NCBI RefSeq assembly: GCF_003334315.1
Contig: NZ_QOWR01000078.1
DNA from: Escherichia coli
Lineage (GTDB): Bacteria; Pseudomonadota; Gammaproteobacteria; Enterobacterales; Enterobacteriaceae
Strand: one strand, 5' to 3'
DNA: 14,359 nt
A program made the translations under genes and the position numbers. Each line of letters begins with the position of its first letter. The first letter of the stretch is position 1. A model generated the notes under the pieces. That model was not told the origin of the DNA. It did no database searches and saw only the letters and a list, made by a program, of their open reading frames with translations. Shown piece by piece: positions 4,978-6,024 of the stretch.

Positions 4978-6024
4978 ATGCCAGTTTTGCAGTGGGGAAT
5001 GTTATGTGTGCTATCACTTCTCCTTTCTATTGGTTTCCTCGCGGTACATCTCCCGGCGGCGCTATTACTTGGGCCGATGATCGCCGGGATCATCTTTAGT
5101 ATGCGCGGAATTACTCTGCAACTTCCCCGCTCTGCTTTTCTCGCCGCCCAGGCCATTCTTGGCTGCATGATTGCGCAAAACCTCACTGGTTCGATTCTCA
5201 CCACCCTGGCCGTCAACTGGCCGATCGTGCTTGCAATTTTACTGGTAACGCTGCTTTCCAGCGCCATTGTGGGTTGGTTATTGGTGCGCTATAGCTCATT
5301 GCCTGGAAATACCGGTGCCTGGGGCTCCTCTCCTGGCGGCGCGGCGGCAATGGTCGCTATGGCGCAAGATTACGGCGCAGATATTCGCCTGGTGGCGTTT
5401 ATGCAATATCTGCGAGTGCTGTTCGTCGCGGGGGCCGCTGTTCTGGTCACCCGCATGATGCTGGGCGATAACGCTGAAGCGGTTAACCAGCATATCGTCT
5501 GGTTCCCGCCAGTGAGCATTAATCTCCTGCTTACTATTTTGCTCGCGGTCGTTGCCGGTACAGTGGGATGCCTGCTGCGTCTTCCTTCCGGCACGATGCT
5601 CATCCCGATGCTGGCGGGCGCAGTGCTCCAGTCTGGTCAGCTCATCACCATCGAACTACCGGAATGGCTGCTGGCGATGGCGTATATGGCAATTGGCTGG
5701 CGGATTGGTCTTGGTTTCGATAAACAAATCTTACTGCGGGCACTACGCCCGCTACCGCAAATCCTGCTGTCGATTTTTGCTCTGCTGGCTATTTGTGCGG
5801 GTATGGCGTGGGGGCTGACCCGGTTTATGCACATTGATTTTATGACTGCCTACCTCGCCACCAGCCCCGGCGGGCTTGATACCGTGGCGGTCATCGCCGC
5901 AGGGAGCAATGCCGATATGGCGCTCATTATGGCGATGCAAACCCTACGCCTGTTCAGTATTTTGCTGACAGGGCCTGCCATTGCGCGGTTTATTTCAACC
6001 TATGCGCCGAAGCGGTCGGCCTAG
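4978..6024 (+). CDS. abrB: AbrB-family (AbrB/YhhI-like) inner-membrane protein, putative transporter/regulator, 348 aa
   Basis: ATG at 4978 preceded by GAGGGA (about 7 nt spacing). Highly hydrophobic multi-pass membrane protein beginning [26 protein letters not shown]. Recognised as E. coli AbrB (YbgN). The ORF-track start at 4900 is probably too far upstream. Confidence 0.88.

Follow-up and report, generated by a model that had tools for sequence, protein, structure and literature searches.

Where two convergent genes end on each other's stop codons, the question arises of how transcription arriving from either side is brought to an end, and of whether the overlap of the two transcripts has any regulatory role. 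Such a junction is found between abrB and nei in the 14,359-base stretch of Escherichia coli DNA analysed here (the window). abrB lies on the plus strand at 4978..6024 and encodes 348 aa (RefSeq coordinates transferred through locus L001, and translation), and nei lies on the minus strand at 6021..6812, encoding the 263-aa endonuclease VIII (open reading frame list, RefSeq and NCBIfam NF007763). The AbrB product carries two TIGR03082 "membrane protein AbrB duplication" domains (286.8 bits) and is a membrane protein, the designation "AbrB family transcriptional regulator" being an annotation label only. Upstream, its frame stays open as far as a TTG at 4900, which would give 374 aa, as against the 348 aa counted from the RefSeq ATG at 4978, and abrB ORFs of 357-373 aa occur in some relatives.

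According to RefSeq, the order of the genes is ybgQ-ybgP-ybgO-abrB on the plus strand, followed by nei-pxpA-pxpC-pxpB-ybgI on the minus strand. The companions of nei in its operon were placed from ORFs and RefSeq at 6848..7582 (pxpA), 7572..8504 (pxpC), 8498..9154 (pxpB) and 9177..9920 (ybgI), all on the minus strand, and the title of Gifford & Wallace (2000) presents nei as the terminal gene of an operon. The term "DNA-repair operon", used in an earlier reading made from the letters of the sequence alone, is too narrow: nei does stand last in the operon, but ybgI-pxpB-pxpC-pxpA-nei consists mostly of 5-oxoprolinase genes.

Read directly, bases 6021-6024 of the window are CTAG, with abrB (plus strand) and nei (minus strand) arranged tail to tail around them. 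The TAG that ends abrB takes up 6022..6024 on the plus strand, and the TAG that ends nei appears as the CTA of the plus strand at 6021..6023. The tetramer that holds both stops (6021..6024, assigned to neither strand and defined by the sequence and the RefSeq annotation) is one of CTAA, TTAA, CTAG and TTAG, the four possible stop-stop tetramers of convergent genes (Lillo & Krakauer 2007, PMC2174442). The sequence-only reading had claimed that the two stop codons share bases and that no intergenic space separates the genes. Both statements were borne out, the first by the sequence, the ORF list and RefSeq, the second by the 4-base overlap of the coding sequences, and the overlap is confirmed as real.

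The same 4-base overlap is annotated by RefSeq in strain 720632 (locus L001; abrB 5579..6625, nei 6622..7413) and in two K-12 records (nei 745935..746726 and abrB 746723..747769 in NC_000913.3), and likewise in CFT073, O157:H7 and MS20674. A 1.3-kb query spanning the junction matched 5425 of 5426 complete E. coli genomes, strain 720632 being 100% identical, and CTAG was retained in all E. coli lineages sampled, with flanking variation limited to single substitutions. It is well known that CTAG is scarce in E. coli. In the window it occurs twice (6021 and 9078), where 56 copies would follow from base composition and 9.7 according to a Markov estimate, and one of these two copies is the shared abrB/nei stop. 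No composition break was seen at the junction.

In E. coli O157:H7 JEONG-1266 (L085, 722-1500), the annotation treats nei as a pseudogene with a frameshift, the match being one base shorter than the query. In E. coli OkiPb01694 (L087, 1-2599), a P2-like prophage with an integrase and a cox-family regulator interrupts abrB some 100 nt ahead of the stop codon, so that only a 108-nt abrB remnant stands beside nei and homology to the window restarts near 5926. The site of this prophage coincides with a weak inverted repeat (5892-5907 / 5922-5937), and the 3' end of abrB, at approximately 5892-5937, may contain a phage attachment site.

It had also been claimed that the junction lacks terminators, and this claim stood up to a consensus scan, a hairpin-plus-U scan and folding. 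Within 4700-7200, the consensus scan detected no intrinsic terminator in the right orientation downstream of either stop before 7009, and the 4 sites that it recorded compare with 3.7±1.6 in shuffled sequences. The hairpin-plus-U scan, covering the 200 nt past the nei stop, gave no match in any Escherichia locus. Folding of 150 nt at the junction yielded z scores of +1.18 (plus strand) and +0.47 (minus strand), meaning that neither RNA is more stable than its shuffled counterparts, and the inverted-repeat search returned a single weak pair, 75% complementary, at 5892-5937. A G+C-rich hairpin followed by a U tract past the stop, the signature of an intrinsic or bidirectional terminator, was thus not found. 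Scanning the entire window against Rfam produced no match near the junction. Synonymous divergence in nei (12 Escherichia and Citrobacter sequences compared) was 0.396 in codons 226-250 against 0.395 gene-wide, and in abrB it was 0.443 in codons 301-325 against 0.461 gene-wide. The 3' ends thus diverge at an average rate in either gene, which suggests that they contain no embedded conserved RNA element. The opposite end of nei behaves differently, with synonymous divergence of 0.16 and 0.28 in codons 1-25 and 26-50 (about 6663-6812, minus strand) versus 0.40-0.51 elsewhere in the gene.

Published data point to Rho as the factor that ends transcription coming from nei. A Rho termination region has been reported at MG1655 747036 (+), antisense to abrB (Adams et al. 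2021, PMC7815308), which, when mapped through nei (745935..746726), falls at about position 5711 of the window, inside abrB and approximately 310 nt past the nei stop. In the DirectRNA-seq data of that study, reads upstream/downstream of the region were 68/30 without bicyclomycin and 75/95 with it, corresponding to a Rho score of 2.87 (p 7.6e-5; Adams et al. 2021, PMC7815308, supplementary file 2). The position of the region is approximate because read counts were low and the windows used were 800 nt long. In addition to this bicyclomycin-dependent read-through, the untranslated RNA upstream has the C-rich, G-poor composition expected of a Rho-dependent terminator on the nei strand. The abrB stretch antisense to the nei operon transcript (5653..5849, minus strand), delimited by its composition and the Rho region, contains C-rich, G-poor 78-nt segments at 5849-5769 and 5742-5653, with C/G ratios of 1.73-1.93 that rank at or above the 95th percentile of the window; these fit Rho loading on RNA left by ribosomes at the stop. 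On the other strand, the nei stretch antisense to the abrB transcript (6085..6354, plus strand) holds similar segments (6085-6164 and 6223-6354; C/G maximum of 2.23, starting at 6254), and these are by their composition candidate Rho loading sites for abrB transcription. The Rho table of Adams et al. has no entry for nei, pxpA (ybgL) or pxpC, and their Term-seq tables contain no discrete 3' ends for nei, abrB, pxpA, pxpB, pxpC, ybgI or ybgO.

The transcript levels reported for the wild type by Huang et al. (2020), given as sense/antisense RPM, are 121.5/1.2 for ybgI, 76.9/1.3 for pxpB, 102.9/2.8 for pxpC, 40.6/5.0 for pxpA, 5.4/4.1 for nei and 8.2/2.3 for abrB, the abrB values being uncertain because some genes have scrambled entries in the strand column of this table. 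Both nei and abrB are therefore weakly expressed (2-8 RPM), and the antisense RNA of nei amounts to about 0.77 of its sense level. Sense RNA is some 8-fold lower in nei (5.4 RPM) than in pxpA (40.6 RPM), and no hairpin is predicted in the 35-nt pxpA-nei spacer (6813-6847; fold z +0.95). Antisense RNA over nei carries on over pxpA and fades in pxpC, a profile that fits either a poorly terminated abrB transcript or an internal antisense start. Inside nei and antisense to it, a sigma-70-like promoter match is found at 6279-6307 on the plus strand (CTGCCA, 17-nt spacer, AATAAT; 9/12). It is the sole such match in 4700-7200, a count that does not exceed that of shuffled sequences, but instead of abrB read-through, this weak promoter-like site could be what gives rise to the antisense reads over nei, pxpA and pxpC.

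Double-stranded RNA captured by p19 was modest over nei (6.5-21 RPM) and abrB (5-12 RPM) and far more abundant over pxpC and pxpA (136-293 RPM; Huang et al. 2020), with no dsRNA cluster at the abrB-nei junction in the p19 tables covered here. In the rnc-14 and rnc-38 RNase III mutants, sense RNA was 3.8 and 4.1 RPM for nei, versus 5.4 in the wild type, and 4.2 and 2.4 RPM for abrB, versus 8.2 in the wild type (Huang et al. 2020); these are per-gene values that carry no replicate statistics and come from tables with the scrambled strand column. The pair also appears among the 165 convergent excludons of MG1655 compiled with ExcludonFinder (Sanmartin et al. 2025, PMC12288877), for which a listing means that the two transcripts overlapped in 50% or more of 58 RNA-seq samples (PMC12288877). 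The proposal that the two transcripts must overlap at their 3' ends is thus supported by published data: the catalogue entry, the Rho region about 310 nt into abrB and the antisense RNA over nei all attest to it, and in the published data the transcripts of the two neighbours do overlap, as the definition of a convergent excludon demands.

Relatives of the locus were surveyed by scanning one genome per species with Nei and keeping the best 80 loci. Among these, abrB faces nei with a 4-base overlap in 13 loci, from Escherichia sp., E. whittamii, E. albertii and several Citrobacter, in which the nei/abrB stop pairs are TAG/TAG, TAA/TAG, TAG/TAA or TAA/TAA and the lengths of Nei and AbrB are constant. 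Elsewhere the two genes are separated by gaps of 6 nt (S. enterica arizonae), 25 nt (C. sedlakii), 54 nt filled with REP-like sequence (S. enterica diarizonae) or 75 nt (one C. amalonaticus-like genome), and two other Citrobacter have an extra ORF between them. In the nei tree, the overlap state falls in three separate groups, which means that it either dates back to the ancestor of the Escherichia-Citrobacter-Salmonella group or arose repeatedly. Selection for the overlap, as opposed to simple tolerance of it, could account for the persistence of the 4-base register across genera. Loss of a stop in E. coli would extend AbrB by 7 residues only, or Nei by 6 only, and for this reason a strong cost of stop loss was rejected; since so few residues would be added, a stable 4-base register can be understood without the need of strong selection.

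In at least 37 of the 80 loci, from other genera, nei faces gltA (confirmed as citrate synthase) across a spacer of about 40-800 nt, most often 40-300 nt. These spacers often contain a canonical bidirectional terminator, in which a GC hairpin stands between an A tract and a T tract, as in Kluyvera (AAAAAAAGCGCCCGCAGGCGCTTTTTT), and bidirectional terminators were located 20-130 nt past nei in L025, L026, L031, L036, L056, L066, L082 and others. Where abrB directly abuts nei, the nei-gltA bidirectional terminator has no counterpart. In the Escherichia-Citrobacter-Salmonella group, to judge from the distribution of these neighbours, abrB apparently came to separate nei from gltA. The position next to nei is occupied in other ways as well: an AraC-family regulator, not abrB, faces nei in Citrobacter (L014, L016, L017, L023 and L028, 3795-4709) and likewise in Pluralibacter (L049, 3783-4673), with a 2-nt gap or a 10-nt overlap, so that different genes in different lineages abut the nei stop almost without a spacer. 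Another convergent pair of the window, dtpD-phrB, has a spacer (11673-11821) made up of REP-like palindromic elements and without a consensus terminator, and within it an Rfam match to the ES036 (CssrF) sRNA (75 bits) lies at 11717-11759 on the minus strand.

Several readings of the junction have to be weighed against each other. If one of the stops were not the true end of its gene, the overlap would be an annotation artefact and not a real overlap, a view to which the poor characterisation of abrB and the ambiguous start of its ORF (TTG 4900 or ATG 4978) lend some colour. Stop codons are, however, set by reading frames and not by the choice of a prediction. Moreover, Nei aligns end to end with the NCBIfam NF007763 endonuclease VIII equivalog model (positions 1-263 of 263; 505 bits, cutoff 252), the last zinc-finger cysteine standing three codons ahead of the stop (…CPGCQH and then the stop codon), and the length and C-terminal motif of AbrB are constant in 12 Escherichia and Citrobacter sequences. 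The artefact was rejected on these end-to-end family matches and conserved protein lengths, and its probability is practically nil. A programmed head-on collision of polymerases at the junction would end both transcripts near their stops and keep the RNA overlap short. Such collisions have been published as contributing to bidirectional termination at convergent E. coli pairs, but the mechanism requires a stem-loop in the nascent RNA to fix the collision point, and none is predicted at abrB-nei. In addition, the simultaneous presence of convergent polymerases would be rare because abrB and nei are rarely transcribed, and the Rho-sensitive signal is located some 310 nt past the junction. With the required stem-loop missing and expression low, collision-based termination was rejected as very improbable.

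The overlap could alternatively make up a functional convergent excludon, in which transcription of abrB and of the nei operon would lower each other, through interference between polymerases or through cutting of the RNA duplex by RNase III, with pxpA and pxpC possibly affected and the overlap kept by selection. The presence of nei-abrB in the published catalogue speaks for this reading less than it seems to, because the catalogue asks for transcript overlap and any two expressed genes with overlapping coding sequences qualify automatically. The antisense/sense ratio of nei, about 0.77, and the roughly 8-fold fall in sense RNA from pxpA to nei with no intervening hairpin would be in line with mutual repression, but antisense RNA is equally high over pxpA, where the sense level is 8 times higher, and hence does not track the drop at nei. 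Similarly, the dsRNA captured by p19 over nei and abrB (5-21 RPM), and in larger amounts over pxpC/pxpA (136-293 RPM), speaks for this reading; neither nei nor abrB sense RNA, however, rises in the two RNase III mutants. Escherichia and three Citrobacter groups have retained the overlap register even though their stop codons have turned over, yet gaps of 6 to 75 nt or other genes interrupt the arrangement in Salmonella and several Citrobacter, and the overlapped 3' regions show no excess synonymous conservation. Nor is the overlap in itself a sign of regulation, since overlapping 3' ends are the rule among convergent E. coli operons (276 of 370, with a mean overlap of 286 nt; Conway et al. 2014, PMC4161252). 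Taken together, these data make the functional excludon unlikely.

The suggestion, made in the sequence-only reading, that abrB and nei affect each other by interference or antisense control is unsupported, and for its RNase III-dependent version there is weak evidence against. If the overlap were nonetheless regulatory, it would provide another worked E. coli excludon, one in which a DNA repair enzyme is tied to a membrane protein that is poorly understood. It is quite improbable that the 3' tail of abrB, running antisense through nei into pxpA/pxpC, uses the conserved zero-spacer junction to tune endonuclease VIII and 5-oxoprolinase. We take abrB to be the "aidB regulator", genetically tied to the alkylation-damage response, and tuning of this kind, if true, would link a gene of that response to oxidative base repair.

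In summary, the abrB-nei junction is probably an ordinary four-base stop-stop overlap in which polymerases overrun CTAG, Rho acts later and the overlap of the RNAs is incidental. In this ordinary overlap, RNA polymerase coming from either gene would pass the shared CTAG and enter the opposite gene, since neither a spacer nor a terminator hairpin exists to stop it. Ribosomes would drop off at the stop codon, leaving the RNA beyond it exposed to Rho, which would stop transcription some hundreds of bases past the stop. Rho would probably end the abrB transcript too, although it may do so inefficiently, given that antisense reads go on over pxpA and pxpC. The tail-to-tail RNA overlap can then be viewed as a probable side effect of the close packing of the genes, one that alters expression slightly at most. 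As such, the junction illustrates a general rule, namely that tightly packed convergent genes lack the room for hairpins, use Rho inside the coding sequence of the neighbour and yield antisense 3' ends. The comparative picture adds that an overlap of this type can last long, the nei-abrB register being stable in Escherichia and Citrobacter, while gltA is the gene opposite nei in most Enterobacteriaceae.

A literature search for a dedicated study of nei-abrB found none, and the junction is best placed by comparison with systems already described. The classical pairs dnaQ-rnh and ilvA-ilvY (cited in Conway et al. 2014, PMC4161252) are convergent units with 3'-overlapping transcripts, as nei-abrB is, and, unlike nei-abrB, they have been studied experimentally one by one. 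Among the convergent excludons of MG1655, nei-abrB is itself a listed member; the excludon concept implies mutually exclusive expression, of which the RNase III mutant data give no sign for this pair. The Rho termination described by Adams et al. past stop codons and of antisense RNA is matched by the abrB-antisense region some 310 nt past the nei stop, where the signal is modest (score 2.87, tens of reads) and mapped on one strand only. The bidirectional intrinsic terminators found between nei and gltA in Kluyvera, Lelliottia, Huaxiibacter and other Enterobacteriaceae occupy the same position after nei and also serve a convergent pair, whereas abrB-nei of E. coli has neither spacer nor hairpin nor U tract. 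In its geometry the junction is identical to the tetramer class of Lillo & Krakauer (2007, PMC2174442), in which, as at abrB-nei, convergent stop codons share a central TA. Convergent overlaps jump in number at length 4, and in E. coli 58 were counted, with few of the genes concerned having rho-independent terminators (Lillo & Krakauer 2007, PMC2174442); Huvet & Stumpf counted 75 convergent overlapping pairs in this species. The relatives of the abrB-nei locus use all four tetramers of the class, and abrB-nei shows no essential difference from it, apart from using the CTAG that is rare in the window, with both genes ending in TAG. The overlap is an ordinary and annotated one, of a described class, and belongs to a pair that is already catalogued.
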